In this document: positions 1 through 16,932 of the stretch, one piece after another
Position numbering within the stretch: the first letter of the stretch is position 1
Layout: each line of letters opens with the position of its first letter
Assembly: GCA_964535015.1 (NCBI GenBank)
Contig: CAZHRU010000003.1
Location: 3,940 to 67,939, forward strand
Length of the DNA stretch: 64,000 nucleotides
Reading direction: 5' to 3'
Source of the DNA: an uncultured Verrucomicrobiota bacterium
GTDB lineage: Bacteria > Verrucomicrobiota > Kiritimatiellia > CAIKKV01 > CAITUY01
The notes under the pieces: model-generated
What the model was told of the DNA's origin: nothing
Database searches by the model: none
The model's input: the letters and a program-made list of their open reading frames with translations, nothing else
Program-made: the position numbers and the translations under genes

Positions 1-2162
1 GTGTACTGGAGGAGTTTCAGGCCAGGCGAGGGAAGTTGGGCGGGCAGGCTGCCGGGTTTGAGCAGCACCAGCGCCAACTGCGTATTTTGGGGCACCTGAC
101 GGAAGCGGCGCTGGCCTCATCGTCGTTCGTCGAGGCGTTGCGCGAATTAAGCGACGGTCTGGCTGAATTGCTTTCGTGTGATGTGGCGGGGTTGCTCGGT
201 TTTTCGGAGGGCCAGAAGATCCTGGTCCTGAGCGCGCAGAAGAAGGTGACCGAGGAGTTTCTGCGCCAGGCCGAGAGCGAGGTGATCAGCCGGTACAACT
301 CGCTTAGCGGTCAGCAGTTACAACGAACCGACTTGCGGATTCAATGGGAGGGGGAGCCGGTGACGGCGGACGGGGCCCCGGTCCCCGATCGGATGCTGGT
401 CATTCCGATCCTGGTTGGCAATGAAGTCAAGGGGGTGCTGTTGCTGGCGGCGGCGGCGGCCGAAGCCTTTGCCGAGACGGACATCGCCTTCATGTATCAC
501 ACCGCCAATCTGCTTTCGGCGATTCTTTCGGCGGTCAACCGGATCCGTCAGATGGCGGTACATGATGCGTTGACGGGGTTGCACAACCGGGCGCACCTTG
601 AGGAGCAGTTGGAGCGGGCCTGGTCCCTGGCCCGGCGGCATGGTCACCACATGGCGGTCATGATCATGGATTTGGACTACTTCAAGACCTTCAACGACAG
701 TCACGGGCACATGGTGGGGGACCGGTTGCTGAAGGAGTTTGCCGATATCCTGAAGCGGTCGGCACGAACGACGGATGTGGTGGCCCGGTATGGGGGTGAT
801 GAGTTTGTCATCATGTTGCCGGAGACTGATTTGCCGGCGGGCCTGATGTTGGGGAACCGCGTGTTAAAGCTGGTGAGCGAGCATGTATTCTGTGCCGATT
901 CGCTGGGGTTGAAGTTGACGGCCTCGATCGGGGTGGCCACCAGTCTGGATGTTGACCCGGAGGCGCGCGCGTCCGAGATGTTGCGTCTTGCCGATATTGC
1001 GTTGTATGACGCGAAACGTGAGGGGCGCAACTGTGTCCGGTTGTGGTCGGCGGGGAGGGGGGGGCGGGAAACGCAGGCGCCCGAGGGGGGGGCGGAAGGA
1101 CGGGACAAGCCGGGACAGGGGCGAATTCTTCTGGTGGACGACGACTTGGCGATCCTGGAGGTGGTGTCGAGCATGCTGGGGAGCGCTGGTTACACGGTTG
1201 ATGCGGAATCCTCATCGTCGGAGGCTTTTCGCCGGTTGGAGGAGAGCGTCGGGGTTTATGACGTGGTTTTGACGGACCTGCTGATGCCGGACGTGGATGG
1301 CCTGCAGATTCTGGACCGGGTTCGCATGATTGATACGTTGGCGATGCCGATTGTGATGACGGGGCAGGCCACCAAGGATACAGCGGTGTCCAGTTTGCGG
1401 CACGGGGCGTTTGAGTTCATCGAGAAGCCGATCAGAAAGGGTGAACTACTGGCGGTGGTGGAGCGCGCCCGCGAGTACAGGCGGCTCAGGGTGGAGAACG
1501 ACCGTTACCGGATCAGGCTGGAGGACATGGTTCGCCAGAAGAGCAGTGAGTTGGTTGATGCGCTGGAGCGGGTCAAGCACTCGCATGAGTTCACGTTGCT
1601 GGCGCTGGCCAGTCTGTTGGATGCGCGGGAACAGGCGACGGGGCGGCACAGTCTGCGGGTACGGGACTTGGCGTGTGTGCTGGGGCAGGAGATGGGGATG
1701 ACGGAGCACGAATTGAACACGTTGAGGCAGGGCGCCTTGTTGCACGATATCGGCAAGATCGCCGTGCCCGATGCCATTCTTCTCAAGCCGGGGCCGCTGA
1801 CGGAGGAGGAGTGGAAAGTGATGAAGACGCACTCGGAGGTCGGGTACAACATCCTCAAGATCAGTCCGTACATGCAGGAGGTGGCCGATCTGGTGTACTC
1901 GCATCAGGAGCGGTATGACGGGACGGGGTATCCGCGGGGATTGAAAGGCGATGCCATTGCGCTCACGGCGCGGCTGTTTGCGGTGGTGGATGCGTATGAC
2001 GCGATGCGGTCGCATCGGCCTTACCGCCGGGCCATGACTTCGGTCCGGGCGGTGGAGGAGTTAAAGCGGAATGCCGGGACCCAGTTTGATCCGGCGGTGG
2101 TGGCGGCCTTTCTGCAGTGCGAGCATGCCATTGAAGCGGTGGGCCGCTGGGTGCCGGACTGA
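1..2162 (+). CDS. Multidomain c-di-GMP signalling protein: GAF - GGDEF (diguanylate cyclase) - receiver (REC) - HD-GYP phosphodiesterase. Open at the 5' window edge, so possibly N-terminally truncated.
   Basis: ORF 36..2162, and the frame stays open upstream to nt 3. GGDEF motif RYGGDEFVIM. REC motif ILLVDDDLAILEV...VLTDLLMPDVDG. HD-GYP motifs HDIGKIAVPD and YSHQERYDGTGYPRGL. Confidence 0.8.
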   Translation, partial: VLEEFQARRGKLGGQAAGFEQHQRQLRILGHLTEAALASSSFVEALRELSDGLAELLSCDVAGLLGFSEGQKILVLSAQKKVTEEFLRQAESEVISRYNSLSGQQLQRTDLRIQWEGEPVTADGAPVPDRMLVIPILVGNEVKGVLLLAAAAAEAFAETDIAFMYHTANLLSAILSAVNRIRQMAVHDALTGLHNRAHLEEQLERAWSLARRHGHHMAVMIMDLDYFKTFNDSHGHMVGDRLLKEFADILKRSARTTDVVARYGGDEFVIMLPETDLPAGLMLGNRVLKLVSEHVFCADSLGLKLTASIGVATSLDVDPEARASEMLRLADIALYDAKREGRNCVRLWSAGRGGRETQAPEGGAEGRDKPGQGRILLVDDDLAILEVVSSMLGSAGYTVDAESSSSEAFRRLEESVGVYDVVLTDLLMPDVDGLQILDRVRMIDTLAMPIVMTGQATKDTAVSSLRHGAFEFIEKPIRKGELLAVVERAREYRRLRVENDRYRIRLEDMVRQKSSELVDALERVKHSHEFTLLALASLLDAREQATGRHSLRVRDLACVLGQEMGMTEHELNTLRQGALLHDIGKIAVPDAILLKPGPLTEEEWKVMKTHSEVGYNILKISPYMQEVADLVYSHQERYDGTGYPRGLKGDAIALTARLFAVVDAYDAMRSHRPYRRAMTSVRAVEELKRNAGTQFDPAVVAAFLQCEHAIEAVGRWVPD

Positions 2163-2184
2163 GGCGTTGTGTTGTGTCGGCGGG

Positions 2185-3585
2185 TTATCCGGGTTCACCA
2201 GCCTGTTCCACTTCCGCGGCGCGGATATTCAACAAGCGCATGCGGTAGTTGAGGATTCTCCTTGTGGTACCCAGGAGTTTTGCCGCGCGGGTCTGGACCC
2301 CCTTGGTTTGCCGGAGCGCGTCGAGGACCAGGCGTCGTTCGAAGGCGTTGACGGCATCTTCAAGCGAGGTGCCGGCCGGCACGGACTGGTGAGGGGTGAC
2401 GGGTGTGATGGGGGCGGTCCGCCGCAACGGGTCCGGGAGATCATCGGCGGTGATCTGGGTTTCGCCGGCGTGCAGGACCAGCATCCGTTCTATGAGGTTA
2501 CGCAACTCGCGGACGTTACCCGGCCAGGGGTATTGTTGCAGGATGGCGAGGGCATCGGGGGTAAAGCCGGCGACCTTGACGTGCATGGACCGGCGGAAGG
2601 ATTCCAGGAAATACTTTGCCAACCGGGGAATGTCGTCCTGGCGTTCACGCAGGGGCGGAAGGCGGATGGGGACTACATTCAGCCGATAGAAGAGGTCGTC
2701 GCGGAATTTCCGGAGGCGGACTTCCTCGGTGAGGTCCCGTGCGGTGGCGGCCACGATGCGCGCGTTGGTGCGGATGATCTGGGTGCCGCCGACGCGCATA
2801 TATTCCCGTTCCTGCAACACGCGCAGTAACTTCACCTGGGTTGAGAGGGACATTTCGCCGACTTCATCGAAGAAGATGGTTCCCTGACCGGCGAGATCAA
2901 AGCGACCGGACTTGCGGGTGTCGGCGCCGGTGAAGGCTCCTTTTTCATGTCCGAACAGTTCGCTTTCGAGGAGGGTTTCGGGCAGGGCGGCGCAATGAAC
3001 GGGGATGAAGGGTTCATCGTGCCGGTTGGCGAGTGCATGGAGGCGGCGGGCGATCAACTCCTTGCCGGTACCGCTCTCGCCGGTGATCAGGACGGTGGCA
3101 TCGGTATCGGCGGCCTTGGCGACATCCGCCATGGCGGCCAGGAATGAGGGGGATTCGCCGACGAGGGCGCTGACGGGGAATTCCTGTTCCACCTCTTTCT
3201 GCAGGGTTTCGACACGGCGCCGCAAGGCGCTGGTTTCCAGGACACGGGCCACGATGCGGCGAATCTCGTCCACATCGAAGGGTTTGACCACGAAATCGTA
3301 GGCGCCAGCCTTCATGGCCTCGACCACGGGGCGGACGGAGGCCGAGGCGCTGACCATGACGCAGGGCAATTCCGGGTAGAGGTGCTGGATCTCCTTCAGG
3401 AGCGTGATGCCGTCCTTTTCGGGCATGAGCACATCCAGCAGAACGAGATCGACCGACTGGGTTTCCAGAGTTTTGGAGGCGGCGGCCGCGTGTTCGGCCA
3501 GGGTGAGGTGGTAGGAGCGGGCGAAGACTTGCCGGAGGGATTCACGGCTGCCGCGGTCATCATCGACAATCAGGATGCGTTTCAT
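2185..3585 (-). CDS. Sigma-54-dependent transcriptional response regulator (NtrC/AtoC family: REC - AAA+ sigma-54 interaction - Fis-type HTH).
   Basis: N-terminal REC domain MKRILIVDDDRGSRESL. Walker A GESGTGKELIARRLH. GAFTGA motif (EKGAFTGA). C-terminal HTH AKLLGTTRRILNYRM. The 4-nt ATGA overlap with the upstream kinase indicates an operon. Confidence 0.9.
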   Translation of the reverse strand: MKRILIVDDDRGSRESLRQVFARSYHLTLAEHAAAASKTLETQSVDLVLLDVLMPEKDGITLLKEIQHLYPELPCVMVSASASVRPVVEAMKAGAYDFVVKPFDVDEIRRIVARVLETSALRRRVETLQKEVEQEFPVSALVGESPSFLAAMADVAKAADTDATVLITGESGTGKELIARRLHALANRHDEPFIPVHCAALPETLLESELFGHEKGAFTGADTRKSGRFDLAGQGTIFFDEVGEMSLSTQVKLLRVLQEREYMRVGGTQIIRTNARIVAATARDLTEEVRLRKFRDDLFYRLNVVPIRLPPLRERQDDIPRLAKYFLESFRRSMHVKVAGFTPDALAILQQYPWPGNVRELRNLIERMLVLHAGETQITADDLPDPLRRTAPITPVTPHQSVPAGTSLEDAVNAFERRLVLDALRQTKGVQTRAAKLLGTTRRILNYRMRLLNIRAAEVEQAGEPG

Positions 3586-5588
3586 GGTGGTGGCCCTCCT
3601 CCTTCAATAGCCGGAAGGCGCACGGTGACACAGGTTCCGAGTTCGTTCGAGTGAATGGCGATCTGGCCGTTATGGTCAAGGATGGTGCGTTGTGCGACGG
3701 GGAGGCCGAGGCCGATTCCGCGTGCCTTGGTGGTGTAGAAGGGGGAGAAGACCTTGCTGAGGTGATCGGCGGGGATGCCCGGGCCGTTATCCTTGACGAC
3801 AAGGACCACGGTGGGTTGGAGGGGGTCGTCCTGTTGGGCATGCAGGAGGAGGGACAGTTCGGGACGGGGTTGGTTGGCCAGGGCCTCGATGGCATTGCGG
3901 ATGAGGTGCTGGAAGGCTTCACCAAGGGCGCGGGCGTCGCCGTTCACCTTGGGAATGGGGGTATCGGCTGAGATTCGCGTATGGAGGGCCTCGCGTTGTG
4001 CGGGCGTGAGGAGCGAGGCGAGGGAGGTCTCCACAATGGCGGCGATGTTCAGAGGTGATGGATGGAGGGGTGGGGGGTGCGCGTAGTCGTTGATCTGATT
4101 GATAATGGCGTTCAGGCGGTCCACTTCCAAAGAGACGAGGTCGCTGAACTCGGCCCGGAATTCCTTGTCGTCGTACCGTTCCGGCAGCAATTGGGCAAAG
4201 GTTTTGATGGTGACCAGAGGGTTGCGGACCTCGTGTGACATTCCGGCGGCCAGTTCGGCCCAGAAGGTGGCGCGTTCGAGCCGTTCTGTTTTTTCCAGGA
4301 GGATTGCCTGATCGGTCACGTCCTGGATGATGGCCAGGGCGCCCAGGCAGAGGGCGCGGTTGATCAGGCGTTCTGTCCGGACGATCAGGCTGCGACGGGT
4401 GGATGGATCAATCCAGGACGCATTGCCGGGGACCCCATTTTCGCCCAGGGTGCGCCGGAAGATATCGGCCAGACGACCGTCGACGGCCTCAATGGGGTGG
4501 CCGGTGGCGGATTCGGCGTTGCCGCCGATCATGTCACGGGCGGCTTGATTGCACCAACGGACGATGCCATCGGCGTCCACGGCGATGATGCCGGAGGGGA
4601 GGGCATGGAGGAGGGTTTCGGCCAGTGTTTTCTGAAGTGTGACCTCCTCAAGGAGCAGGGCGTTCTCAAGCGTTGTGGAGACGCAGTCGGCGAGGGCGAT
4701 CAGGTTTTCGACACGGGTATTGTCGAAGGGGGCCCCGGTGGAGAGGTGGCCGACGTGGATCCAGCCGAGGAGTCGGTCGCGGGATTGGAGAGGAACGAGG
4801 GCCTCGGCGCCCAGTTGATCCAGTGTCTGAGCGAGAACGAGGCGGGTGGTGGGGTCCTCGGTGAGGTTCAGGTTGGAACGGGTGATGGCGTGGGCCCGGA
4901 GTTTCAGCCAGCGGACGAGCGGGTGGTTGGCATCGAATTCCAGTCCGGCGGTGTTTTCCATGCAGCGGACATTTGCCCTGAGTCGGTAGTATTCGCCGTC
5001 GCGGGTGCGGCAGAAGATGCCTACGCGCGCCACCTTCAGGGTGCCGGCGGTTTCATCGGCGAGACGGTGCAGGAGGGAGTCCACATTGCTGAACTGACGG
5101 AGTGCGGAGGAGAAATCGCTGACCGTGAGGCAGGCCGGGCGGGTATCGGCGTTGCGGGTGGTGTCGGAGTTTATGATGGCGGACAGGCGGGCGGTATCGG
5201 CCCGCAGGCGGCGATTATCCTCGGCGGTGGACAGATGAGTCAAGGCGCGTTCAACCAGAGAGGAGATTCGGCGGTAGTCCGCCTCGGCGTCCTCCACGGC
5301 ATAGAGTCCCATTCCCTGTGCGGCGAGCATGGGGTCGCTGCCGGGGACGCCAAAGGCGATGATCAGGCCGTGGGGCCAGGAGGCGGTCAGGTGGTGGAGT
5401 TGGTCGAAAACGCCGGGGGACTGGAGATCCATCAGTAGGAGGCAGGCGGGCAGGCGGTCGAGTTCGGCGGACAGTTCATGTGGTGAGGACACGGGTTGCA
5501 CCGAGACGATGCCGTCCAATCCCGCGCACAGGCGTTGAGCCCATGTGTCGGAATTACTGCAAAGCAGACAGGTTAGGGGTGATTTCAT
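3582..5588 (-). CDS. Cytoplasmic sensor histidine kinase (N-terminal REC-like domain, GAF, PAS, HisKA, HATPase_c; NtrB/AtoS type).
   Basis: H-box MSHEVRNPLVTIKTFAQLL. G-box/HATPase DNGPGIPADHLSKVFSPFYTTKARGIGLGL. No predicted TM segments. Start/stop overlaps with neighbouring genes on both sides. Confidence 0.85.
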   Translation of the reverse strand: MKSPLTCLLCSNSDTWAQRLCAGLDGIVSVQPVSSPHELSAELDRLPACLLLMDLQSPGVFDQLHHLTASWPHGLIIAFGVPGSDPMLAAQGMGLYAVEDAEADYRRISSLVERALTHLSTAEDNRRLRADTARLSAIINSDTTRNADTRPACLTVSDFSSALRQFSNVDSLLHRLADETAGTLKVARVGIFCRTRDGEYYRLRANVRCMENTAGLEFDANHPLVRWLKLRAHAITRSNLNLTEDPTTRLVLAQTLDQLGAEALVPLQSRDRLLGWIHVGHLSTGAPFDNTRVENLIALADCVSTTLENALLLEEVTLQKTLAETLLHALPSGIIAVDADGIVRWCNQAARDMIGGNAESATGHPIEAVDGRLADIFRRTLGENGVPGNASWIDPSTRRSLIVRTERLINRALCLGALAIIQDVTDQAILLEKTERLERATFWAELAAGMSHEVRNPLVTIKTFAQLLPERYDDKEFRAEFSDLVSLEVDRLNAIINQINDYAHPPPLHPSPLNIAAIVETSLASLLTPAQREALHTRISADTPIPKVNGDARALGEAFQHLIRNAIEALANQPRPELSLLLHAQQDDPLQPTVVLVVKDNGPGIPADHLSKVFSPFYTTKARGIGLGLPVAQRTILDHNGQIAIHSNELGTCVTVRLPAIEGGGPPP

Positions 5589-8083
5589 GGTGGTGCCGTG
5601 CCGTCGTTGAACAGTGGGAACTGTAGGGTGAATGTGGTTCCCTGCCCGATCGCGCTCTTGACGTCGATGATGCCGCTGTGTTCATGAATGATGCCGTGGG
5701 CGACGGAAAGCCCAAGGCCGGTGCCGTGGCTTTTGGTGGTGAAGAAGGGGTCGAAGATGTGAGTGAGGGCGTCCTGGGCGATGCCTTCGCCGGTGTCCTG
5801 GATGGAGAGGACGATATGGCGTCCGTTGGGGTGATGGTTTGGAGGGGAGAGAGGGTGGTAGTCGGTGGTGGTGATGGTCAGGGTGCCGGAGTCGGGCATG
5901 GCATCGATGGCGTTCAGGAAGAAGTTAATGAGGGCCTGGCCCAACTGATGGGCGTCGGCGTTGATCAGGTCGGAGGTGGCCTCGAAGTGTTGTTCCAGCC
6001 GGATGTCTTTCTGGCGGAGTTGCTGACTCATCAGTTTGGTGGCGTGGTCGAGGACTTCGTGGAGGTGGGAAGGGGCGAGGATGGGGCGGGACGGTCGTGA
6101 GAAGCGCAGGAGTTGGTTAACGATGGTGTCGATGCGTTTGACTTCGGATCCGACCAGGGAGGTGAAGGTGTCGCGGAAGTCGGCGTCGTCGAAGCGTTCG
6201 GGGAGGAGTTGGGTGAAGGTTTTGATGGAGACGAGGGGGTTCTTGATTTCGTGGGCCATGCCCGCGGCGAGGGTGCCGATACTGGCGAGGCGGTCGGTCC
6301 GGCGGACTTGCAGTTCCAGTTGGCGGATGGCGGTGAGGTCGTTGATGACCAGGAACGCGCCCATCATCTGGCCGGTGTGGCTGTAGAACACGGAACTGCT
6401 GACGCGGACGGGGGTTTCGGTGTCGTCGGGCCAAGGGAGGATGATATCCTTGTCGCGGGTGCCCTGGCCTTGAGTGATGGTTTCCGTGAAGACGTCGGCG
6501 AGAGCGGGGGGGATGGCGGCGAGGGTGGTGGGAGCGGAGGCGAGGTGGAGAATGCGTTGAGCCTCGCGATTGAAGACGGTCAGGTTGCTGTTGGTGTCGG
6601 CGGCGATGACGCCGCTGGCGAGGCCATCCACGAGTAGGTCGTTGTAGAGTTTGGCATTTTGGACCTCGGTATAGAGGCGGGCGTTATTCAGGGCGATGGC
6701 CAGTTGGTTGCACAGGAGTTGCAGTCCCTGTTGGTCGGGCGCTCCGTAGATGCGTCCTGACAGTTTGGGTCCAAGGAGGAGAATGCCTTCAAGGCCGTCC
6801 GGGGACCGCATGCCGGCGGCGGCGGAGATCTTGATATTGTCGAGGAACTGGATGGTCTGCGCCATGGTGGGGTTGGGATTGAGGCGTTTTATGATGTCCG
6901 GGACGATGGTCTCGCCGCTCTCCCTGAGCATTTGGGGCAGGATGTCGTGTTGGCTGATTGTCAACGGTGTGGAGCCTGGAGTGAGCGGGTAGCGTTCGAC
7001 ATAGGAATCGTCCTTGGCGAAGAGGATGCGGACTTGATCCGTGCCCGTCGCCTCCGCCACCAGGCGGGCGAATTCAGAAACCAAGGCGTCTATCGTGGTA
7101 ATCGATCGCAGGATATTGGATGTCGATTGCATGGCGGAGGAAACATCCATGGGGGCAAAATGGATAAAGACGCGATTGGCGAACCGTTGCATCCGGCCGT
7201 GAGCCGGGGCGAGTGAGAAGGCGGTTGTCAAGGCGGCAAGAAAATGGGCGATGGGATGGTTGGAAATGTGGAATACCGAGAGTAGCTGGTTTACCGGCCA
7301 CCAGGTGACGAAATAGACGATGGAGAGATAGAAGATCAACAGGCTGTAGGCAATGGCCATTCGGAAGACGTAGGCCATGTCCATGATGCGGCGAGTGGCG
7401 ATGCCATAGGCGATGACGACATCCAGCACGATGACTGACAAGGGGGCAAGTTGAATGGGCGCGGACGTCTCCATAAACAGGGGAACGAGGATGACCAATC
7501 CGAGGGCGGACAACAGGCCAAGGGCGGCCCCCAGAAGGACATAGTTCATTTCCGCGCGGCGGATGCCTTGCAGGTGTTTCAGGGAGCGGGCGAACTCCCA
7601 GATGAGAAGGATCAGGGACCCCGTGAAGAAGACCGGGAAAAGCCAAAAGGCCACACCAAAGACAGGTTCCGGGACCGCCATGGCGGGGTTGGCGGGATTG
7701 GAGGGGGAGTACATGCCTTGCACGATGAGCGGGGTTAGGGAGGCGGTCAGCGACAAGGCAATGGCCGCGCCCAGCCAGACGCGGTTACGGGTGATGATTT
7801 TCCAGCTACTGTCGGCGGGGAAAAGAATGGACTGGCGGAGCCAGTCGAACGTCAGCGGGAAAAGGGCGGCCATGCTGTGACAAAAGCGAATCAAGAACAG
7901 GGTGATGCGATCCGACGGAGCAGAAAAGCCGAGGGCGAGCGCGATGAGCCAACACGCCAGAATGCCGGACAGGACCATGAATAGTTGATTGGTTGGCCGG
8001 CGGGGGTTGGTTCGATAGACGCTGATGCCCAGTCCCACGTCAAACCCGACGGCGATGAGATGGAAAACTGATAAGATGTTCAT
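5585..8083 (-). CDS. Membrane-embedded sensor histidine kinase (about 8-9 TM helices, then GAF/PAS, HisKA, HATPase_c).
   Basis: The N-terminal ~330 aa are highly hydrophobic, with multiple TM segments. H-box AAGMAHEIKNPLVSIKTFTQLLPERFDD. HATPase IQDTGEGIAQDALTHIFDPFFTTKSHGTGLGL. Confidence 0.85.
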   Translation of the reverse strand: MNILSVFHLIAVGFDVGLGISVYRTNPRRPTNQLFMVLSGILACWLIALALGFSAPSDRITLFLIRFCHSMAALFPLTFDWLRQSILFPADSSWKIITRNRVWLGAAIALSLTASLTPLIVQGMYSPSNPANPAMAVPEPVFGVAFWLFPVFFTGSLILLIWEFARSLKHLQGIRRAEMNYVLLGAALGLLSALGLVILVPLFMETSAPIQLAPLSVIVLDVVIAYGIATRRIMDMAYVFRMAIAYSLLIFYLSIVYFVTWWPVNQLLSVFHISNHPIAHFLAALTTAFSLAPAHGRMQRFANRVFIHFAPMDVSSAMQSTSNILRSITTIDALVSEFARLVAEATGTDQVRILFAKDDSYVERYPLTPGSTPLTISQHDILPQMLRESGETIVPDIIKRLNPNPTMAQTIQFLDNIKISAAAGMRSPDGLEGILLLGPKLSGRIYGAPDQQGLQLLCNQLAIALNNARLYTEVQNAKLYNDLLVDGLASGVIAADTNSNLTVFNREAQRILHLASAPTTLAAIPPALADVFTETITQGQGTRDKDIILPWPDDTETPVRVSSSVFYSHTGQMMGAFLVINDLTAIRQLELQVRRTDRLASIGTLAAGMAHEIKNPLVSIKTFTQLLPERFDDADFRDTFTSLVGSEVKRIDTIVNQLLRFSRPSRPILAPSHLHEVLDHATKLMSQQLRQKDIRLEQHFEATSDLINADAHQLGQALINFFLNAIDAMPDSGTLTITTTDYHPLSPPNHHPNGRHIVLSIQDTGEGIAQDALTHIFDPFFTTKSHGTGLGLSVAHGIIHEHSGIIDVKSAIGQGTTFTLQFPLFNDGTAPP

Positions 8084-9324
8084 AGGAACCCCGGGGGCCG
8101 CTCGACAATGAGAGTGCTGTTATTGCCCCCCAGTCCGTGGGAGTTGATCAATACAACCCTGGCGTCAATGCGTCGGGCTTTCCAGGGGACATAGTCGAGG
8201 TCGCAGGCGGGGTCGGGTTTGTCAAGATTGGTTGTTGGGGTAAGAATTCCATTTCGCATGCCCATGGAACTGGCGATGACTTGGAGCGGGCCTGCGACGG
8301 CGAGGGGGCTGCCGATAACGCCTTTGATGGAGGTTACCGGTGTCCGGTAGGCAAGAGGCCCGAAGACTCTCTTGATCATTAACGTCTCGATGCGGTCAAT
8401 AAGGGGATGTCCGGGGCCATGGGCGGAAATATAGTCCACACTTTCTGTTCTTATGCCTGCGTTGGCAAGAGCCATACGCATGGTGTCTTCAAGGCCAGAA
8501 CCGGGTTGAGCGAGGTCGGGATCCACACGGGTAGCAAACCCGGTGATCTCGAGATAAGGCCGTACCCCACGCCTCCGGGCATGTTCAAGGCTTTCCAGAA
8601 TCAGGATTCCCGATCCTTCGGAGAGGACTCCCGAATCCCGGTCAAGGTCAAACGGACGACAGGCTTTCCCCGGGGTGTCGTTGCGCGTCGAGAGCAAACC
8701 GCCTGCTGCCATGGCTGAATAGGTCAAGGTGTTGATGGGGGCATCTGTGGCGCCACACATCCCGATTTCGGCTTTTCCGCGTCGGATCAGATCGGCGGTG
8801 GCGGCAATGGCGTCAATTCCCGCCGTGCAGGCGGAACCTGTTGTTGTGGCCTGGGTGATACGGGGGATGTATTGGGCCAATATACTGGCGGCATGATGGG
8901 GATGCGAGGCTTGAGCCAGATGGGCATGCATGCGTTCAGGCCCGTGGGCCAGCAGGCGGTCATGGATTTGGGCAACGACCTCAATGGCGATCGAACCGAC
9001 TCCCAGTATCAAAGGGAAGGGTTGATTGCCGGTGCGATGTTCCGTAAGGGATGCATCCTTGAGAGCCTCGTAGGCGGCCGCCAGGGCCATCTGGGTTTGG
9101 CGGGCGATTCGCTTGGTGCTGATATGATGCCCCACATGGACTGAGGGATTGAAGTCCTGAACTTCGCCGGCAATTCGACTTGGGTATCCGGTGGTATCAA
9201 ACGACCGGATCGCCTTGATGCCGCTCCGGCACGCAACAAGTGATTCCCAAAAGGCAGTCTTCCCTATTCCATTTGGTGCAACGACGCCCAATCCAGTGAC
9301 AACCACTCTATTGCAAATTGCCAT
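8080..9324 (-). CDS. Beta-ketoacyl-ACP synthase II-like condensing enzyme (FabF/KAS family), first gene of the kinase/NtrC operon.
   Basis: KAS N-terminus MAICNRVVVTGLGVVAPNGIGKTAFWESL...RIAGEV. C-terminal NSHGLGGNNSTLIV motif. The tracked ORF is extended; the real ATG is at 9324. There is a 4-nt overlap with the HK start at 8083. GC is intermediate (~55%). Confidence 0.8.
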   Translation of the reverse strand: MAICNRVVVTGLGVVAPNGIGKTAFWESLVACRSGIKAIRSFDTTGYPSRIAGEVQDFNPSVHVGHHISTKRIARQTQMALAAAYEALKDASLTEHRTGNQPFPLILGVGSIAIEVVAQIHDRLLAHGPERMHAHLAQASHPHHAASILAQYIPRITQATTTGSACTAGIDAIAATADLIRRGKAEIGMCGATDAPINTLTYSAMAAGGLLSTRNDTPGKACRPFDLDRDSGVLSEGSGILILESLEHARRRGVRPYLEITGFATRVDPDLAQPGSGLEDTMRMALANAGIRTESVDYISAHGPGHPLIDRIETLMIKRVFGPLAYRTPVTSIKGVIGSPLAVAGPLQVIASSMGMRNGILTPTTNLDKPDPACDLDYVPWKARRIDARVVLINSHGLGGNNSTLIVERPPGFL

Positions 9325-9559
9325 CTTCTGTTGCCTGGGGAAGGTTTCCTTATTCAAGCACTTGTGCAGAGAGAAACTTTCGTGTTGAGAAAACGCGCAA
9401 AAATAATAACTATTACCTCGCAAATATGGCGCTGAAAGGGTTATGTTCAAAAGTGCGCATCTAATGTTCAAGTTTGTACAAAGACGTCCAGCCAATTGCA
9501 AGGAATAAATCAACGAACTGTGATGGAATTGTTGGTGAGTGCTTAGAAAAGGAGATGCA

Positions 9560-10648
9560 ATGATTCGATTAAGCGGGACGATCAAGAATTGGCTATTGAG
9601 AATGGGAGAGCGAATCTTTCTCGGTGCAAGTCTGCGGCAGGCGTATCTTGTAATGGGAGGGCATATATATTTCCAGACATTGAGTGCTGCCGTCCAATTG
9701 GACTTATTTACATTGCTGGCTCGGAAAGGGCCCCTGCGACGTGAAGAGATCGCGTCAATTCTGGGGATCGATGAAAAGCCGGCACGCATCCTTTTGTTGG
9801 GATGTTCATCATTGGGTCTTGTTCGTCACGTTCGCAGGGGGTGCTATGGGAACACGAGGCTTTCGTCCTTGTTATTGAACGCTGATCATCCTCGTAACAT
9901 CCTTGCCATTATTCGCTGGCAGCATTTCATCAACTACCGAGCCATGTATTATTTCGGTGATGCCATCAAGGTTAATCGGAATGTTGGGCTTGAAGTCTTC
10001 AAGGGCGGGGGTGCAACGCTTTATGAGCGGTTATCAGCAAACCCCGAACTCGAGCAGATATTTCAAGATGCGATGCAAGCCATTTCGGTCCAGGCAAATC
10101 ATCTACTGGCAGGGTCTGTCGATTTTTCACAGTTCAAATACCTATTGGATGTCGGTGGGGGGAATGCCACCAATATCATCGCGTTAGCCAGGTGCTGTCC
10201 AGGCCTTAGAGCTGCCGTCTTTGACTGGCCTTCTGTGTGCGCCATTGCGTCCGAGAATATTCAGAAAGAAGGGTTGGCGCAAAGGCTTCAAGCCGTATCG
10301 GGAAACTGTTTCTCGGATCCGTTTCCCGAGGGAGTGGATTGCGTCCTGTTCTGTCATTTCATGACCATTTGGTCCGAGGCCAAGAATAGAGTTTTATTGA
10401 AGAAGGCCTATGAGGCTCTGCCGACAGGAGGTGCTGCAATAGTGTTCAACATGATGCAGAATGATTGTGAAACTGGGCCTCTTAGCGCCGCCATGGGTTC
10501 GCCTTATTTCCTCACATTGGCAACAGGTGAGGGGATGCTTTACACATGGTCCGAGTATGAGTCATGGATGAAGGAAGCTGGTTTTCGAAAGGTCATTGTC
10601 CAAAGACTCATTCGTGATCATGGCATTATCATCGGCATAAAACAATGA
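9560..10648 (+). CDS. SAM-dependent O-methyltransferase (class I, family-2 OMT with N-terminal dimerisation domain; CrtF/COMT-like).
   Basis: SAM-binding motif LLDVGGGNATNIIALARCCPGL. AAGGAG RBS 7 nt before the ATG at 9560. Gene and flanks are ~48% GC against ~64% for the surroundings. Confidence 0.8.
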   Translation: MIRLSGTIKNWLLRMGERIFLGASLRQAYLVMGGHIYFQTLSAAVQLDLFTLLARKGPLRREEIASILGIDEKPARILLLGCSSLGLVRHVRRGCYGNTRLSSLLLNADHPRNILAIIRWQHFINYRAMYYFGDAIKVNRNVGLEVFKGGGATLYERLSANPELEQIFQDAMQAISVQANHLLAGSVDFSQFKYLLDVGGGNATNIIALARCCPGLRAAVFDWPSVCAIASENIQKEGLAQRLQAVSGNCFSDPFPEGVDCVLFCHFMTIWSEAKNRVLLKKAYEALPTGGAAIVFNMMQNDCETGPLSAAMGSPYFLTLATGEGMLYTWSEYESWMKEAGFRKVIVQRLIRDHGIIIGIKQ

Positions 10649-10900
10649 TGTGTACATATATGTGCGGATTTAAGGTTCTTGTTGGTGTGTAGGCTGGTGA
10701 ATGGCAATGTTGTGCTGAACTTATTAACATGTTTGTACATAGGTGCATTTATGTTAATCTTGATTGTTATTTGCCATACCAGATATTGTGGTGTGAAATA
10801 GAAAATACCATACATATTGATTTTCATGATTTGGCACTGCGATTGCTATAGGACCTTGCTGTTGATGATAGCGGTGGAACAACAATAGCGGAGGTATTGA

Positions 10901-12181
10901 ATGAGCAGGATGATGCAAAAGTGGGGGTTGGTGGTTGTGGCTGTTTGCAGTGTGGCCATGGTGGGTTATGCCAACGGGTTTAGGAATCCGCCGGAGGGTG
11001 CTGCGGCGCTTGGGCGAGTTGGCGGCAAGGTGGCGCTGGCCGATGATGCGGCTGCTGTGGCGCATAATCCTGCGAACCTGACGGAGTTGAAGGGGGCTGA
11101 ACTTGAGGCATCGGTGACTCTGATCAATACCGAGACGAAGTACCGGTCGCCGATGGGCGGTTCCACGACGGATGATCCCTGGAAGTACTTGCCGAATGTG
11201 TTTTATGCGACTCCGATCGAAAATTCCCGGTATGCGGCGGGCATCGGGTTGACCACGCCGTTCGGGCAGTCCACGGTATGGGACAAAGAGAGTGTGTTCC
11301 GCTATACGGCGCCGTATTTTGCGGAGATGAAGACGGTCAACCTGAATCCCACGCTGGCGGCCAAGGTGAGCGACAAGGTGTCGGTGGCGGCGGGGTTGGA
11401 TGTGTACTGGTCAAGCCTGGATCTCAAGCAGGTGTTTCCCTGGGGGATGGTGACGGGCAACCCATTGATCCCGGACGGGGAAGTTCGGATGCAGGGCAGT
11501 GGTGTGGGTGTTGGCGGCAATGCGGCGGTGACCTTCCGTCCCGTTCCCCGGCATATCGTGGCCTTGACCTATCGGTCCGCGGTGAAGGTGGACTACGAGG
11601 GTGACACTGATTTTGCGGGATTTCCTGCGGGCGGGGAAGTTCTCGGGATTTCGCCTGGCAGTGATTTTGACACCTCCATCGAGTTTCCGACGGTGGCCGC
11701 GCTCGGGTATGCGGTGAAGATTACCGACAACGTCCGCGTGGAAGCCGATGTGGAGTGGGTGCAGTTTTCCAAGTATGAAAACCTTGTCCTTGATGCCGGG
11801 CGCAATAATCCGCTGGTGCAGCGGCCGGGCAGTGTAAACCCGATGGCCCCGGTGGCGATTCCCCAGCAATGGGATGACACGTGGACCTATGGTCTGGGCG
11901 CCGAGTGGGATGTGCGGTCCGATCTGACGTTGCGTGCGGGGTATATCTTCCTGGAAAGCCCGGTGCCGGAAACGACGCTGGCGCCGACGCTGCCGGATGC
12001 GGATCGCCATGTGATTTCGGTGGGGGCGGGTCTCCATCGAAACGGACACCGGGTCGACCTTGCCTACGGTTACAGTGTGATCGGTGACCGTGAGGTTTCC
12101 CCGGAAGCGAACCCCGCCTATGCGGGCACGTATGAGACCAGTTCCCATTTGATGAGTGTGACCTATGGCTGCACATTCTGA
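10901..12181 (+). CDS. Outer-membrane transporter of hydrophobic compounds, FadL/TodX/OmpP1 family.
   Basis: Signal peptide. The family-typical N-terminal segment ANGFRNPPEGAAALGRVGGKVALADDAAAVAHNPANLT. C-terminal Phe (…YGCTF). Confidence 0.8.
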   Translation: MSRMMQKWGLVVVAVCSVAMVGYANGFRNPPEGAAALGRVGGKVALADDAAAVAHNPANLTELKGAELEASVTLINTETKYRSPMGGSTTDDPWKYLPNVFYATPIENSRYAAGIGLTTPFGQSTVWDKESVFRYTAPYFAEMKTVNLNPTLAAKVSDKVSVAAGLDVYWSSLDLKQVFPWGMVTGNPLIPDGEVRMQGSGVGVGGNAAVTFRPVPRHIVALTYRSAVKVDYEGDTDFAGFPAGGEVLGISPGSDFDTSIEFPTVAALGYAVKITDNVRVEADVEWVQFSKYENLVLDAGRNNPLVQRPGSVNPMAPVAIPQQWDDTWTYGLGAEWDVRSDLTLRAGYIFLESPVPETTLAPTLPDADRHVISVGAGLHRNGHRVDLAYGYSVIGDREVSPEANPAYAGTYETSSHLMSVTYGCTF

Positions 12182-13361
12182 CGTGGCGGATAAAGCGACC
12201 ACGGAGACTGCGCGTCCCAAGGTTCTGGTTATTGATGATGAACGGGGTCCGCGTGAGAGTCTGCGGATCCTGTTGAAGACGGAATACGACGTGTTGTGCG
12301 CCGAGTCGGTGGATGTCGGGGTTACGATGTTGAAGGAGCATCATCCCGACATGGTGATCATGGACATCCGGATGCCGGGCAAGAGCGGCATTGAGGGGTT
12401 GAAGGCGATCCGCGACCTGGACACGGCGGTGTCCGTGGTGATGTTCACTGGATTCGGGGCGCTGGAAACGGCGCAGGAAGCCATCCGGCTGGGGGCCAAC
12501 GATTATCTCAAGAAGCCGTTCGATGCCTTTGAAATCCGTGAGGTGGTGCACCGGTATGTGCGGCGCACTCAGGTGGAAAGGCGCCGACGGCAGACCGTTG
12601 ATGAACTGGGGCAACTCAATCAGACGCTCAAGGAAGAGTTGGTGCGGAAAGAGCATCTGGCGGTTCTGGGGCGGAAGTCCGCGGAACTGATGCACGACAT
12701 ACGGCAGCCGTTGACGGCGGTCACGGCGTATGTGGACCTGTTGTCCTCCGAGTTGAAGGACGTCCAGACCCATTTTGGGGACCGCTGGCAGGAGACCTCG
12801 GCGTACCTTGATAAAATCGAAAATGGCGCGGAACGGTGCAGGCGACTGGCGGACATGTGGCTGGACATCAGCCGTGGGAAACTGAACCGCGCACCGATTC
12901 GGGTTCAGGAGATTGGTGATGCCGTGGTGCATGACTGTCGTTCGCTGGTTGACGAGAGGAAGGTGGTCCTGATGGTCGAGATGGATGATGGAGCCACTGT
13001 GATCAATGTTGACAGGATGCAGTACACGCGGGCGCTTCAGAATCTCCTGGTGAATGCCGTTGAGGCGGTTCAACCTGGCACTGGACGGGTGAAGGTGTGG
13101 TGCCGGTGTGATGGGGGACAGGTTGAACTGGGTGTTGAGGATAACGGCTGCGGGATGAGTCCGGAGCAAATCAAGCGTTCGGTGGAGCCTTTCTTCAGCA
13201 CCAAACCGGGAACGGGAACGGGTCTTGGGTTGTTCATTGCGCGTCAGGCGGTGGAAGCGCATGGTGGCACGATGCGGATTGAGAGTGAGACTGGCAAGGG
13301 GACGAGGATCACGATAACGGCGCCCTGTGGTGATAATACAAGTAGTCAGAATCCAGAATGA
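12165..13361 (+). CDS. Hybrid two-component protein: receiver domain fused to HisKA/HATPase_c kinase core. Alternative GTG start at 12183.
   Basis: REC domain KVLVIDDERGPRESL...MDIRMPGKSG. H-box LMHDIRQPLTAVTAYVDLL. ATPase EDNGCGMSPEQIKRSVEPFFSTKPGTGTGLGLFIARQ. Confidence 0.8.
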   Translation: MAAHSDVADKATTETARPKVLVIDDERGPRESLRILLKTEYDVLCAESVDVGVTMLKEHHPDMVIMDIRMPGKSGIEGLKAIRDLDTAVSVVMFTGFGALETAQEAIRLGANDYLKKPFDAFEIREVVHRYVRRTQVERRRRQTVDELGQLNQTLKEELVRKEHLAVLGRKSAELMHDIRQPLTAVTAYVDLLSSELKDVQTHFGDRWQETSAYLDKIENGAERCRRLADMWLDISRGKLNRAPIRVQEIGDAVVHDCRSLVDERKVVLMVEMDDGATVINVDRMQYTRALQNLLVNAVEAVQPGTGRVKVWCRCDGGQVELGVEDNGCGMSPEQIKRSVEPFFSTKPGTGTGLGLFIARQAVEAHGGTMRIESETGKGTRITITAPCGDNTSSQNPE

Positions 13362-13393
13362 ATCACCGACGAGCGCAAAGGCTAGTGTGCAAA

Positions 13394-13420
13394 GGGAGTG
13401 AGTTTATTGCTCCCTATTCT
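13394..13420 (+). terminator. Putative bidirectional terminator hairpin between convergent genes.
   Basis: Stem-loop GGGAG-tgagtttattg-CTCCC followed by TATTCT. It is flanked by an imperfect inverted repeat cagaatccagaa / ttctgaattctg (13346-13440). Confidence 0.45.
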
Positions 13421-15117
13421 GAACCCTGACTTCTGAATTCTGAATACCCATCCGGTAATGCCGTATGGTTGATGGAACGGGCGAGATCGCTGATGGTGTC
13501 CGTGTCGCCTGAGAAGAAGGCGCCGAGGGCCGTGTCACGGAAGAGGCCAGCCTCCATGCCGGCCTGAACGCTCATCAGGTAGGTTTCGTCGCTGATGGAG
13601 GTGGGGATTCCGAGGCGACCGACTTTGCGGGCGAATGCGCCTGTCATCCCCAGCACCTTGCGGTAGGAGCGCCCGTCAATTTCGATGGGCATGGAGTTCC
13701 AGAAGCGGGGAGGCAACTGGAGTTTGACTTTCCAGGTCATGGCTACGTTGAGGTACTGGTCGGGGTCGGCGAACCGGATACGGTACTGGTCGGGCGACTG
13801 GAACCAGGCGGTTCGTGGGGCGACGATGGGTGCCTGAAGCATGAGGGAATGGAGTCCGACATTTTGAAGCAAGGTGAGAGTCTCCGCTTCCGACTGAGCG
13901 GTTTCGCCTGGACAGGGGAAGATCACGCTGCCGACGGTGAAGATTCCTGCGGCCTTGCATCGGAGGAGGGCGCGCCGGGTATCCTCGACCCGAATGCCTT
14001 TGCGTAGCGCATCCAGGATGGGTTGGGAGCCGGACTCGATGCCAAAGAAGAGGGAGACGCATCCGGACCGGCGAATGGTTTCAAAATCCGCGTCATCGGC
14101 TTCCCGGATATGGGCGAAGGAGGCGTAGCGCAGGGGGAGTTTTTCGTTCAAGGTGGCCCGTGCGAATTCGTTAAGGAGGGTATAGGGCGTGCAGGAGCCT
14201 GCGAAACGGAAGGCCCGGATCCCGTACCGGTGATCCAAGTCCCTGACTTCCGCCAGGAGGCGGGTAATACTTTTGAGGCGGACGCTCTTGTTGCTTTTCA
14301 CGGGGTGGACGCAGAAGGTGCAGGCGTTGCGGCAACCGCGGCTTTCGTCGATCACCATGATTTTGATTTTCTCGTCGCCCGCCATGGCGGGATAGACGGC
14401 GGGGTCGTAGATGGGGAGGGGAAGGTCGTCCAGATTGGCCACCATGAGTTCGTCGGTAAAGCGGATAGTGCCGCCGGGTTCCATGAAGATCAAATTGGGG
14501 ATTTCGCCCAGGGTCTTGTTTTCGGCGCCGTGGCGAGCGAGCATGACGATGGTGTGTTCGCCCTCGCCGTGGGCGAGGGCGTCGAAGACGGGGTAGCGGC
14601 GCAGGATGCGGTCCATAAAGAGATCCACATGCGGACCGCCGCCGAAGATGCGGAGGTGCGGGTGGCGATGACGCAGGATGGAGGCGAGGCGGGCGGAGCC
14701 CTCGAGGCCATCGCCATTCCAGAGTTTAAAGCCCACGGCATCGATGTGGTGTTCTTCGACGGCATCGGAAAGTTCGGCGCCGATGATCTCAATGGCCTGT
14801 TGCTGGAGGTGGCGGCGTTCGGTTTCGGCGCGTTGCAGAATCGGCAGGGCGACCAGGCGGCGCAGGGCGGTTAGAGGGCCGGGGTCCGGTTGGCGGAGGG
14901 CCTGCCACTCGCGGGCGAGGCGATGGCGGAGATCTGGGGAGGTCATCCGGCGAATCGTTCCGACGGTAGAGAAGTCGAGGATGCGGACGGTGCGACCGTC
15001 CTTGAAGAGGGCGCCGGCCAGGTTGGCCAGGCCGTTGTCGGGCATCAGGCTGTTGGGTGCGAACGGATACCCGGCATAGTTGACGAGCAGCCAGTTCTGG
15101 AGTGGTTTAGTCGGCAT
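13414..15117 (-). CDS. B12-binding-domain radical SAM enzyme (class B radical SAM; methyltransferase or other cobalamin-dependent radical enzyme).
   Basis: CxxxCxxC motif CRNACTFC. Rossmann-like N-terminal cobalamin-binding domain. 3-nt spacing from the upstream paralogue. Confidence 0.8.
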   Translation of the reverse strand: MPTKPLQNWLLVNYAGYPFAPNSLMPDNGLANLAGALFKDGRTVRILDFSTVGTIRRMTSPDLRHRLAREWQALRQPDPGPLTALRRLVALPILQRAETERRHLQQQAIEIIGAELSDAVEEHHIDAVGFKLWNGDGLEGSARLASILRHRHPHLRIFGGGPHVDLFMDRILRRYPVFDALAHGEGEHTIVMLARHGAENKTLGEIPNLIFMEPGGTIRFTDELMVANLDDLPLPIYDPAVYPAMAGDEKIKIMVIDESRGCRNACTFCVHPVKSNKSVRLKSITRLLAEVRDLDHRYGIRAFRFAGSCTPYTLLNEFARATLNEKLPLRYASFAHIREADDADFETIRRSGCVSLFFGIESGSQPILDALRKGIRVEDTRRALLRCKAAGIFTVGSVIFPCPGETAQSEAETLTLLQNVGLHSLMLQAPIVAPRTAWFQSPDQYRIRFADPDQYLNVAMTWKVKLQLPPRFWNSMPIEIDGRSYRKVLGMTGAFARKVGRLGIPTSISDETYLMSVQAGMEAGLFRDTALGAFFSGDTDTISDLARSINHTALPDGYSEFRSQGSE

Positions 15118-15120
15118 ACG

Positions 15121-16800: not shown

Positions 16801-16932
16801 TGATGTTCATATTTCCGCAGAATGTCAACGAGAAGCCCCCGATCTGGTGAGGGGTTATTGTTGAAGTTTGACTGCCATAAGGGGTTAAGACGGCGAGTAT
16901 CTGCAGGATTCTCAACATGGGCGCAGGCGCTT

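Follow-up and report, generated by a model that had tools for sequence, protein, structure and literature searches.

A FabF-like protein with a remodelled active site, encoded with histidine kinases, as a candidate signal-input component in Verrucomicrobia and Lentisphaerae

Introduction

Why would a gene for an apparent fatty-acid condensing enzyme stand at the head of an operon of histidine kinases? The question is raised by a 64,000-nucleotide stretch of DNA from an uncultured Verrucomicrobiota bacterium of the Kiritimatiellia (positions 3,940 to 67,939 of contig CAZHRU010000003.1, assembly GCA_964535015.1), which in its full length we call the window. On its minus strand, a gene for a protein resembling FabF, the β-ketoacyl-acyl carrier protein synthase (KAS) II, is followed by genes for two histidine kinases and a sigma-54 activator. 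A preliminary description, drawn from the sequence of the window, had taken the first product for a FabF-like fatty-acid condensing enzyme and had considered its coupling to a signalling cascade unusual. Bacterial monitoring of fatty-acid supply or of the state of membrane lipids is known for few systems, and signalling is almost uncharted in the Verrucomicrobia, the Lentisphaerae and the uncultured bacteria related to them, which abound in soil and water.

Here, we compared this operon with related loci, protein families and solved structures. We find that the KAS-like protein is not the housekeeping, elongating FabF; it is a separate paralog with a remodelled active site. The gene order of related loci further suggests that it belongs to a signalling module conserved in the Planctomycetes-Verrucomicrobia-Chlamydiae (PVC) group, here Verrucomicrobia and Lentisphaerae, and on balance we lean toward the reading that it acts there as the input component, either as the synthase of a lipid signal or as an acyl sensor.

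Results

Structure of the operon

The operon comprises four genes (lengths in amino acids, aa):

8080..9324, minus strand: KAS-like protein with the FabF fold, 414 aa (Pfam PF00109 and PF02801, alignments, AlphaFold model)
5585..8083, minus strand: kinase 1, polytopic sensor histidine kinase, 832 aa (Pfam and hydropathy)
3582..5588, minus strand: kinase 2, REC-GAF-PAS kinase without a transmembrane (TM) segment, 668 aa (Pfam and ortholog profile)
2185..3585, minus strand: NtrC-type sigma-54 activator, 466 aa (Pfam, NCBIfam, motifs in the translation)

As the preliminary description had it, the four minus-strand genes overlap by 4 nucleotides (nt) at ATGA junctions, and both the coordinates of the open reading frames (ORFs) and the junctions themselves agree with this: read on the coding strand they are CTATGAAC, CCATGAAA and CCATGAAA, with each start ATG sharing 4 nt with the preceding TGA stop. 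The ORF of the KAS-like gene is mechanically open to 9789, and we placed its start at ATG 9324, where the homology to KAS begins; independent gene calls on identical Logan contigs gave the same products of 414, 832 and 668 aa. The contig is present in samples SRR12261224 and SRR12261225. Overlaps of 4 nt are common in operons and mean little alone, but they are informative here because they are conserved across related loci. Promoters and terminators between the KAS-like and kinase genes were also looked for: from 1900 to 13500 we counted six sigma-70-like promoters (4.2 expected from shuffled sequence) and eight terminator-like hairpins (9.9 expected), both at the level of chance and none of either at any junction, so internal signals that would split the operon were rejected. 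Rfam gave no match over the whole window.

Pfam assigns to the four products, in order, the N- and C-terminal ketoacyl-synt domains; PAS-HisKA-HATPase; GAF-PAS-HisKA-HATPase; and REC-Sigma54_activat-AAA_lid-HTH_8. The domain assignments made at first sight thus hold, with profile evidence supplying the REC domain of kinase 2. The early remarks on base composition are borne out as well, with a GC content of 57.8% for the KAS-like gene (61% at third codon positions, GC3), a GC3 of 76-78% for the kinase and activator genes, and 48.9% GC for the divergent O-methyltransferase gene. The GC3 deficit of the KAS-like gene relative to its three coupled genes is the largest among 49 related loci (mean -0.04), and its nearest relatives (loci L083 and L130) come from lower-GC genomes. 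It is conceivable that this gene, and possibly the methyltransferase gene with it, was exchanged by homologous replacement; when checked, the identity rankings were only weakly discordant.

Active site of the KAS-like protein

By fold, the protein is a KAS (PF00109, 117 bits; PF02801, 76 bits). It aligns end to end with solved FabFs of the same length at 33-38% identity, and its AlphaFold model (mean predicted local distance difference test score, 89.7) superposes on Bacillus subtilis FabF (4ls8) with a template modelling score of 0.94; residues 100-150 diverge from FabF and are modelled with low confidence. With FabF/KAS II it shares the thiolase fold, the length, the catalytic cysteine (Cys166, ACTAG), the first histidine (His302, AHG), the equivalent of Lys335 (Lys334) and the Asp/Glu network (Asp310 and Glu313).

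The remainder of the active site differs. The preliminary description had proposed to look for the Cys-His-His triad by alignment to FabF, and this alignment places Ser339 at the second histidine (FabF His340, in the motif STKSMxGH), so that the triad is absent. The FabF gate phenylalanine (NSFGFGG) is His396 (NSHGLGG), and FabF HGTST reads HGPGHP, both threonines of the HGTxT motif being replaced, by proline and histidine. The protein scores 338.5 bits against the fabF equivalog model TIGR03150 (cut-off, 493.75) and 319.3 bits against PRK07314 (cut-off, 387), and its gene lies outside a fab cluster and beside a kinase gene. On the triad, the gate residue, the threonine motif, the cut-off score and the genomic context, we therefore rejected a housekeeping FabF identity, and with it the view of the protein as a FabF-like fatty-acid condensing enzyme. 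Public annotation labels these genes 3-oxoacyl-ACP synthase II, yet they fail the tests that define FabF.

These changes are a property of a family. In the best 120 homologs (48-100% identity), the cysteine and Lys334 are invariant; the second-histidine column holds asparagine in 102, serine in 18 and histidine in none; and the gate column holds histidine in 92 and arginine in 28. Residue 302 co-varies with the gate: His302 goes with His396 in 90 of 90 cases and Tyr302 with Arg396 in 28 of 28. Asp310, Glu313 and Lys334 are invariant in the family alignment, and the catalytic cysteine is invariant in more than 200 sequences. The triad is thus Cys-His-Ser in the window and Cys-His-Asn or Cys-Tyr-Asn in relatives. 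Because the changes co-vary without exception, the pattern points to an alternative active site that was selected and remodelled, not one that decayed. That the family is a separate paralog follows from comparison with the canonical FabFs of PVC bacteria: those of metagenome-assembled genomes (MAGs) of Kiritimatiellales, Spartobacteria, Opitutus and Verrucomicrobiales are only 36-41% identical to the KAS-like protein. In a library of representatives at 50% identity, proteins of the Cys-x-Lys-Asn-His type top the match list, followed by the canonical Cys-His-Lys-His-Phe type. A scan of a genome collection with generic patterns from the family alignment returned 80 loci (L003-L082), of which 78 held canonical Cys-His-Lys-His-Phe FabFs and two, L006 and L007, were informative. 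Among solved structures we found none with this variant, the best profile matches all being canonical FabFs.

What such an active site can do is the subject of a 2026 preprint on FabF homologs, according to which the two histidines form the oxyanion hole, the HGTxT threonines hydrogen-bond the phosphopantetheine arm in FabF, FabB and ketosynthase/chain-length-factor complexes, and replacement of the histidines would severely hinder catalysis even if the cysteine is kept. The same preprint shows a FabF homolog with a mutated triad acting as a subunit like a chain-length factor, and thereby raises a possibility for the protein studied here, which also combines the FabF fold with a mutated triad: it could be an inactive or semi-active subunit that forms heterodimers with the housekeeping FabF or a different ketosynthase and thereby alters chain length, the two-component system merely regulating it. 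PDB entry 9s5h (chains B and C, a 3-oxoacyl-ACP synthase pair), which may or may not be the complex of the preprint, is among the better profile matches. Chain-length factors and the amxFabFmut protein of anammox bacteria resemble our family in being FabF homologs with a non-canonical triad, found in PVC-group bacteria. However, they have lost the catalytic cysteine that is kept here throughout, and their genes adjoin those of a partner ketosynthase and an acyl carrier protein (ACP) in a lipid cluster, not kinase genes. There is no partner ketosynthase gene adjacent in any locus, and a second KAS gene was found neither in the window nor in the related loci. Given the invariant cysteine and the lack of a nearby partner, a chain-length-factor role is very unlikely.

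Conservation of the link to the kinases

If the KAS-like protein belongs to the signalling system, the link should be visible in other genomes. A scan of metagenomes with a back-translated family motif, which can find motif-bearing genes only, yielded at least 120 further loci, corresponding to 68 clusters at 90% identity and 26 at 70%. For the census of downstream genes, which was restricted to loci with at least 1 kb of downstream sequence, and for the other neighbour counts by clade, all figures hold among the matches listed. A homolog of the kinase 1 N terminus lies immediately downstream on the same strand in 68 of 69 loci: in all 58 of the clade with Tyr/Asn/Arg at the three variable positions and in 10 of the 11 of the window's clade, where these positions read His/(Asn or Ser)/His. 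Kinase 2 comes next in 27 of 28 loci of the former clade and in 5 of 6 of the latter. Taking the start codon nearest the stop of the KAS-like gene, we found the distance between the two to be -4 in 49 of 85 related loci and between -20 and +4 in 81. The activator, by comparison, follows in 5/6 loci of the window's clade and in 0/17 of the Tyr/Asn/Arg clade.

The arrangement of KAS-like protein, two kinases and NtrC-type activator, which the preliminary description had suggested seeking in related genomes, recurs complete and with overlaps in L085/L086, L087 and L089 (KAS-like proteins 57-61% identical) and in a Lentisphaerae MAG (L007), where the KAS-like protein is only 40% identical. In L091, a contig labelled Chthoniobacterales (49% identity), the order is the same without the activator. 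The arrangement, noted as unusual in the one operon, is therefore unusual and yet conserved across a large family; a literature search on ketosynthase/kinase operons, HisKA_7TM and Cys-His-Asn FabF, incomplete in coverage, turned up no description of it. Judged by gene order and overlap, the core of the module is a FabF paralog, predicted to be translationally coupled to a seven-TM (7TM) kinase, followed by a REC-GAF-PAS kinase and accompanied by a divergent REC-kinase hybrid. Since the outputs change from clade to clade and the KAS-like gene remains linked to the kinase genes, we place its product on the input side.

The same census bears on whether the protein might simply be a working condensing enzyme, with Asn/Ser and His396 standing in for the second histidine in the manner of FabH and with a link to kinases that is a regulatory convenience. 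Decarboxylative condensation proceeds with a Cys-His-Asn triad in KAS III and in enzymes of the chalcone synthase type, the residues Cys166, Lys334, Asp310 and Glu313 are all invariant, and a B12 radical SAM gene recurs near the operon, with an O-methyltransferase gene in several loci, so that enzymes that could tailor a product are at hand. This is hard to square, however, with the Tyr/Asn/Arg clade, which has neither histidine and yet the same operon, and with the loss of both HGTxT threonines; moreover, the window protein carries serine, not asparagine, and no ACP, ketoreductase or dehydratase gene is conserved nearby. We regard an ordinary condensing activity as quite unlikely.

Three observations on the surroundings of individual loci may be added. 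In the Tyr/Asn/Arg clade (L006, 5022-8385; L091, 3662-6609), the REC-kinase gene is followed by one for a protein of 720-800 aa with a weak match to the lantibiotic dehydratase N terminus. After the latter, L091 has a ParA/CbiA-like ATPase gene, and L006 has a 265-aa ORF at the corresponding place. In L133, genes for fructose-bisphosphate aldolase, LpxD and a single-domain receiver lie downstream of kinase 2.

The kinases and the activator

Kinase 1 begins with about eight hydrophobic segments (residues 3-262), joined by loops of at most 23 aa, with basic residues on alternate loops. From these short loops we predict that it is without a sizeable periplasmic domain. The hydrophobic N terminus (~330 aa) is followed by a GAF-like region, PAS, HisKA (HEIKNPL) and HATPase domains. 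It aligns with orthologs over ~320-340 aa at 27-44% identity, and orthologs match the Pfam models GAF and HisKA_7TM (PF16927), the latter in L087, in L091 (weakly) and in L007 (37.9 bits). A search of a protein collection with this N terminus returned none above threshold, hydrophobic words having probably swamped the candidate list. The topology is compatible with the proposal, made at the outset, that the polytopic N terminus could sense the state of the membrane or its lipids.

Pfam matches nothing in the first 130 residues of kinase 2 and does not detect a REC domain. A profile of 12 orthologs does match receivers of the NtrC1 type (1zy2, E = 1.4e-7), as does hhalign, and Asp54 in this REC-like domain is invariant and aligns with the acceptor aspartate of the operon's own activator. 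Over its C-terminal 430 aa, kinase 2 is paralogous to kinase 1 (31% identity). Both kinases have intact H-, N- and G-boxes and, given the H- and G-boxes, look active.

The activator has the architecture of NtrC-type enhancer-binding proteins, with REC, AAA+ and Fis-type HTH domains (PF00072; PF00158, 227 bits; PF02954), a GAFTGA motif and an acceptor aspartate (LVLLDV). Its best NCBIfam match is AtoC (NF008469, 479 bits; cut-off, 714), and that of the kinase cores is AtoS (323; cut-off, 646); against the LuxO model the activator scores 339.7 bits (cut-off, 800).

A predicted sigma-54 promoter and the divergent operon

A sigma-54 activator should have a target, and a candidate lies upstream of the KAS-like gene, on the plus strand:

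9465..9480, plus strand: second copy of the repeat motif, TGTTCAAGTTTGTACA, beginning 141 nt upstream of the ATG of the KAS-like gene
9539..10648, plus strand: O-methyltransferase (Methyltransf_2 and dimerisation domain, Pfam), GC 48.9%
10651..10666, plus strand: candidate activator-binding site, TGTACATATATGTGCG, 181 nt upstream of the -24 element (TGTNCR-N4-5-TGKNCR)
10832..10847, plus strand: predicted sigma-54 -24/-12 promoter, TGGCACTGCGATTGCT; 53 nt separate its 3' end from the ATG of the FadL gene
10901..12181, plus strand: FadL/TodX-family outer-membrane channel (Pfam Toluene_X, 206 bits), first gene of the divergent operon
12165..13361, plus strand: kinase 3, a REC-HisKA-HATPase hybrid (Pfam), sharing 17 nt with the FadL gene

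The element at 10832-10847 is the sole match without mismatch to TGGCAC-N5-TTGCW in the 64-kb window, where 0.03 would be expected. In 15 of 17 FadL-bearing relatives, an element that matches at least 9 of the 11 consensus positions lies 54-111 nt upstream of FadL (background, 3.1% per 200-nt window); where the activator is lacking, in the other clade, such an element precedes the REC-kinase gene in only 1 of 45 regions. By these counts, the activator and a predicted sigma-54 promoter co-occur across loci. The preliminary description had suggested tracing the regulon through GG-N10-GC promoters; the one perfect predicted promoter of the window lies in front of the FadL/kinase 3 operon and is conserved in relatives. 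FadL is divergent from the KAS-like gene in all seven loci of the window's clade that have enough upstream sequence, and it is seen in that clade alone; a divergent REC-kinase hybrid is found in the window's clade and, without FadL, in 32 of 33 loci of the Tyr/Asn/Arg clade. The 17-nt overlap of the FadL and kinase 3 genes recurs in L083 and L089.

The repeat TGTNCR-N4-5-TGKNCR is present in 13 of 15 FadL promoter regions against a background of 1.4%, counts that are not independent of its definition, which was made by eye and post hoc from the same sequences. Many regions carry it twice, with a spacing of 33 nt and positions near -109 and -76 counted from the -24 element. Of its four matches in the whole window, those at 10651-10666 and 9465-9480 flank the O-methyltransferase gene. 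We consider the repeat a candidate for the activator's binding site.

An element elsewhere in the window, at 38216-38231 on the plus strand (TGGCACTGCGATTTCC), has its first 13 bases in common with the FadL promoter. A GTG at 38265 (with GGAGGA as ribosome-binding site), 33 nt beyond the 3' end of this element, would start a 177-aa cyclic nucleotide-binding protein. The GC of the -12 element is TC in this case, and with this position broken we set it aside as a second sigma-54 promoter, which it may or may not be.

The position of the promoter also speaks to a reading in which the 7TM kinase senses the membrane by itself, as DesK does, and the KAS-like protein is an effector, that is, a co-transcribed and regulated lipid enzyme, like FadL here and a desaturase in some lineages. 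The short loops of kinase 1 are the layout expected of an intramembrane sensor, and the motif copies lie in the shared divergent region, from which the activator could also regulate the KAS-like operon. Further, some family members look suited to just such a role. In L090, sigma-54-like elements precede both a stand-alone member and a REC-kinase gene with a fatty-acid desaturase gene. In L134 (1122-6776), a member of the clade with the Trp variant (Cys-Trp-Lys-Asn-His), in which a kinase gene follows in none of three loci, is encoded last in a fatty-acid desaturase/FAD_binding_4/KAS-like operon that adjoins genes for a LuxR-type regulator and a resolvase-like protein; this operon suggests that the wider family acts on acyl chains. 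Yet sigma-54 elements directed at the KAS-like gene are absent from the window and from L083, L087 and L089. Variation in loci of this kind usually concerns the effector genes, and here it is the outputs that differ by clade, whereas the succession of KAS-like protein, kinase 1 and kinase 2 is fixed and tightly overlapped in 68 of 69 loci. An effector role, the chief rival to our own reading, thus appears unlikely.

Discussion

Proposed function of the module

Our preferred reading, that the KAS-like protein is an input component, would make it a new kind of input to histidine kinases: either a synthase of a lipid autoinducer or a trigger enzyme that reports the acyl-thioester pool through acylation of its cysteine. 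We consider the case for this evenly balanced. In either form, Cys166 of the protein probably accepts an acyl chain from a thioester. From this chain the protein could make a lipid ligand, soluble in the membrane, for the 7TM domain of kinase 1 to recognise, as in a synthase/receptor pair, a version that we put forward tentatively and that agrees with the KAS-like gene adjoining the gene of a polytopic kinase. Alternatively, it could be a co-sensor that signals to the kinases directly whether it is acylated, about which we are more doubtful. Kinase 1 would phosphorylate the REC domain of kinase 2 (Asp54), and kinase 2 would phosphorylate the activator, which would bind the TGTNCR-N4-TGKNCR repeats and open the sigma-54 promoter at 10832. 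FadL, a channel for hydrophobic molecules, and the third kinase would be induced as output, and a convergently encoded GGDEF/HD-GYP response regulator may link the system to cyclic di-GMP. A lipid theme runs through the loci: the window's clade has FadL, and the family members of L090 and L134 have a fatty-acid desaturase gene as a neighbour.

Several points weigh against this proposal. Neither an ACP nor a ligase nor another biosynthetic partner is conserved beside the KAS-like gene, and the N terminus of the window's kinase 1, the presumed receptor, matches no Pfam model even at E = 5. The Trp-clade member of L134, in its desaturase/FAD-enzyme operon without a kinase, and the stand-alone member of L090, which has a sigma-54-like promoter in front of it and a desaturase gene in the vicinity, both look like ordinary regulated lipid enzymes. 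The Tyr/Asn/Arg clade is without a DNA-binding output nearby, and with three kinases and as many as four receiver domains, the order of phosphotransfer given above is a guess. The conservation of the link, finally, was read from at least 120 loci reached through their motifs alone, and the proposed operator from a motif fitted to the sequences in which it was counted.

Comparison with known systems

The layout of the module has parallels in known lipid-signal systems. In the Rpf system of Xanthomonas, which uses the diffusible signal factor (DSF), RpfF is a synthase with the crotonase fold, RpfC a multi-TM kinase and RpfG a REC-HD-GYP protein; as here, a fold of the fatty-acid pathway is repurposed beside a polytopic kinase, and a REC-HD-GYP protein is encoded in the locus. 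The likeness that we draw is one of layout. The synthase there is a crotonase, and the operon has no sigma-54 activator, second kinase or FadL. The Phc system of Ralstonia likewise combines a lipid signal with a sensor kinase (PhcS) and a receiver-kinase hybrid (PhcR, REC-kinase-like) in one operon. Its synthase, PhcB, is a methyltransferase, whereas the methyltransferase found in some of the loci studied here is dispensable and variable in position. In Vibrio, CqsA/CqsS and LuxM/LuxN pair a synthase of a hydrophobic autoinducer with a loop-poor kinase encoded beside it and lead to the sigma-54 activator LuxO; they differ in the folds of their synthases and in using hybrid kinases with an Hpt relay, in contrast to the two or three separate kinases with N-terminal receivers seen here.

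The closest family matches of the kinase cores and the activator, though well below the cut-offs, are to AtoS and AtoC. AtoC is the sigma-54 activator of short-chain fatty-acid catabolism, and TodST controls an operon that starts with a channel of the FadL/TodX family; neither AtoS/AtoC nor TodS/TodT-TodX has a KAS-like partner or a 7TM input. A further parallel is that FadL assists the uptake of long-chain signals in known systems. To our knowledge, none of the Rpf, Phc, Cqs/Lux and TodST-TodX systems uses the ketosynthase fold. The parts are all members of known families, and in combination they resemble a two-component system with an accessory or synthase component that appears to derive from an enzyme.

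If the KAS-like protein is a lipid-autoinducer synthase, this would be the first signal system of this type in Verrucomicrobia and Lentisphaerae; as a synthase or as a trigger enzyme, it would represent a catalytically rewired FabF fold that was recruited for signalling across a whole bacterial group. The module is a concrete, widespread and testable candidate, with a nucleophile (Cys166) and a kinase as partner, for which both a target promoter and an operator motif can be predicted, and nature provides two versions of its active site, His/Asn-or-Ser/His and Tyr/Asn/Arg.

Other features of the window

Two further genes flank the loci described above:

1..2162, plus strand: GAF-GGDEF-REC-HD-GYP protein (Pfam), truncated by the edge of the window; its gene converges on that of the activator
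13414..15117, minus strand: B12-binding radical SAM protein (Pfam), a steady neighbour in the window's clade

The ORF of the GAF-GGDEF-REC-HD-GYP protein is open to base 3, with intact GGDEF, HD and GYP motifs. Its orthologs are ~845 aa long and have an extra N-terminal REC domain. The gene holds the same position in L085, L087, L089 and L169, in relatives down to 57% identity of the KAS-like protein. The B12 radical SAM protein has orthologs of 58-61% identity at the same relative place in L083, L087, L089, L130, L170 and L181, and the immediate divergent neighbour of the KAS-like gene in L007 encodes a radical SAM protein. LpxC or LpxD genes are found nearby in several related loci. It is uncertain whether the radical SAM gene and LpxC/LpxD are members of the module.

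The O-methyltransferase had been singled out in the preliminary description as a low-GC divergent neighbour of the KAS-like gene. Its low GC content stands, but the conserved divergent partner is the FadL/REC-kinase pair instead. The gene is not at this position in L083 and L087, lies elsewhere in L089 and is in the same place in L170, and its product is 78% identical to the copy of L089, compared with 50-65% for the flanking proteins. On its varying position, its low GC content and the 78%-identical copy elsewhere in L089, we rejected it as a core partner and read it as a mobile, variable, low-GC insertion in the regulatory region, possibly with an accessory role.

The region that starts with the radical SAM gene (13414-19370, minus strand) is unusually dense in signalling genes: it holds a second, tandem radical SAM gene at 15121-16800, a REC-REC gene at 16933-17703 and a gene for a HisKA-HATPase-REC hybrid at 17700-19370. 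Farther away (36559-38241, plus strand), ribose-5-phosphate isomerase B (LacAB_rpiB) and serine hydroxymethyltransferase are joined in a single protein of 560 aa. This fusion, which is 67% identical to a protein of a Lentisphaerae MAG, is kept in more than 100 relatives, and some versions of 650-736 aa add a low-molecular-weight phosphatase domain (PF01451). Finally, GC skew is strongly positive on the plus strand throughout the window, regardless of gene strand, at 0.13-0.32 per 4 kb (~0.06 at 40-48 kb), which is large for a bacterial chromosome.

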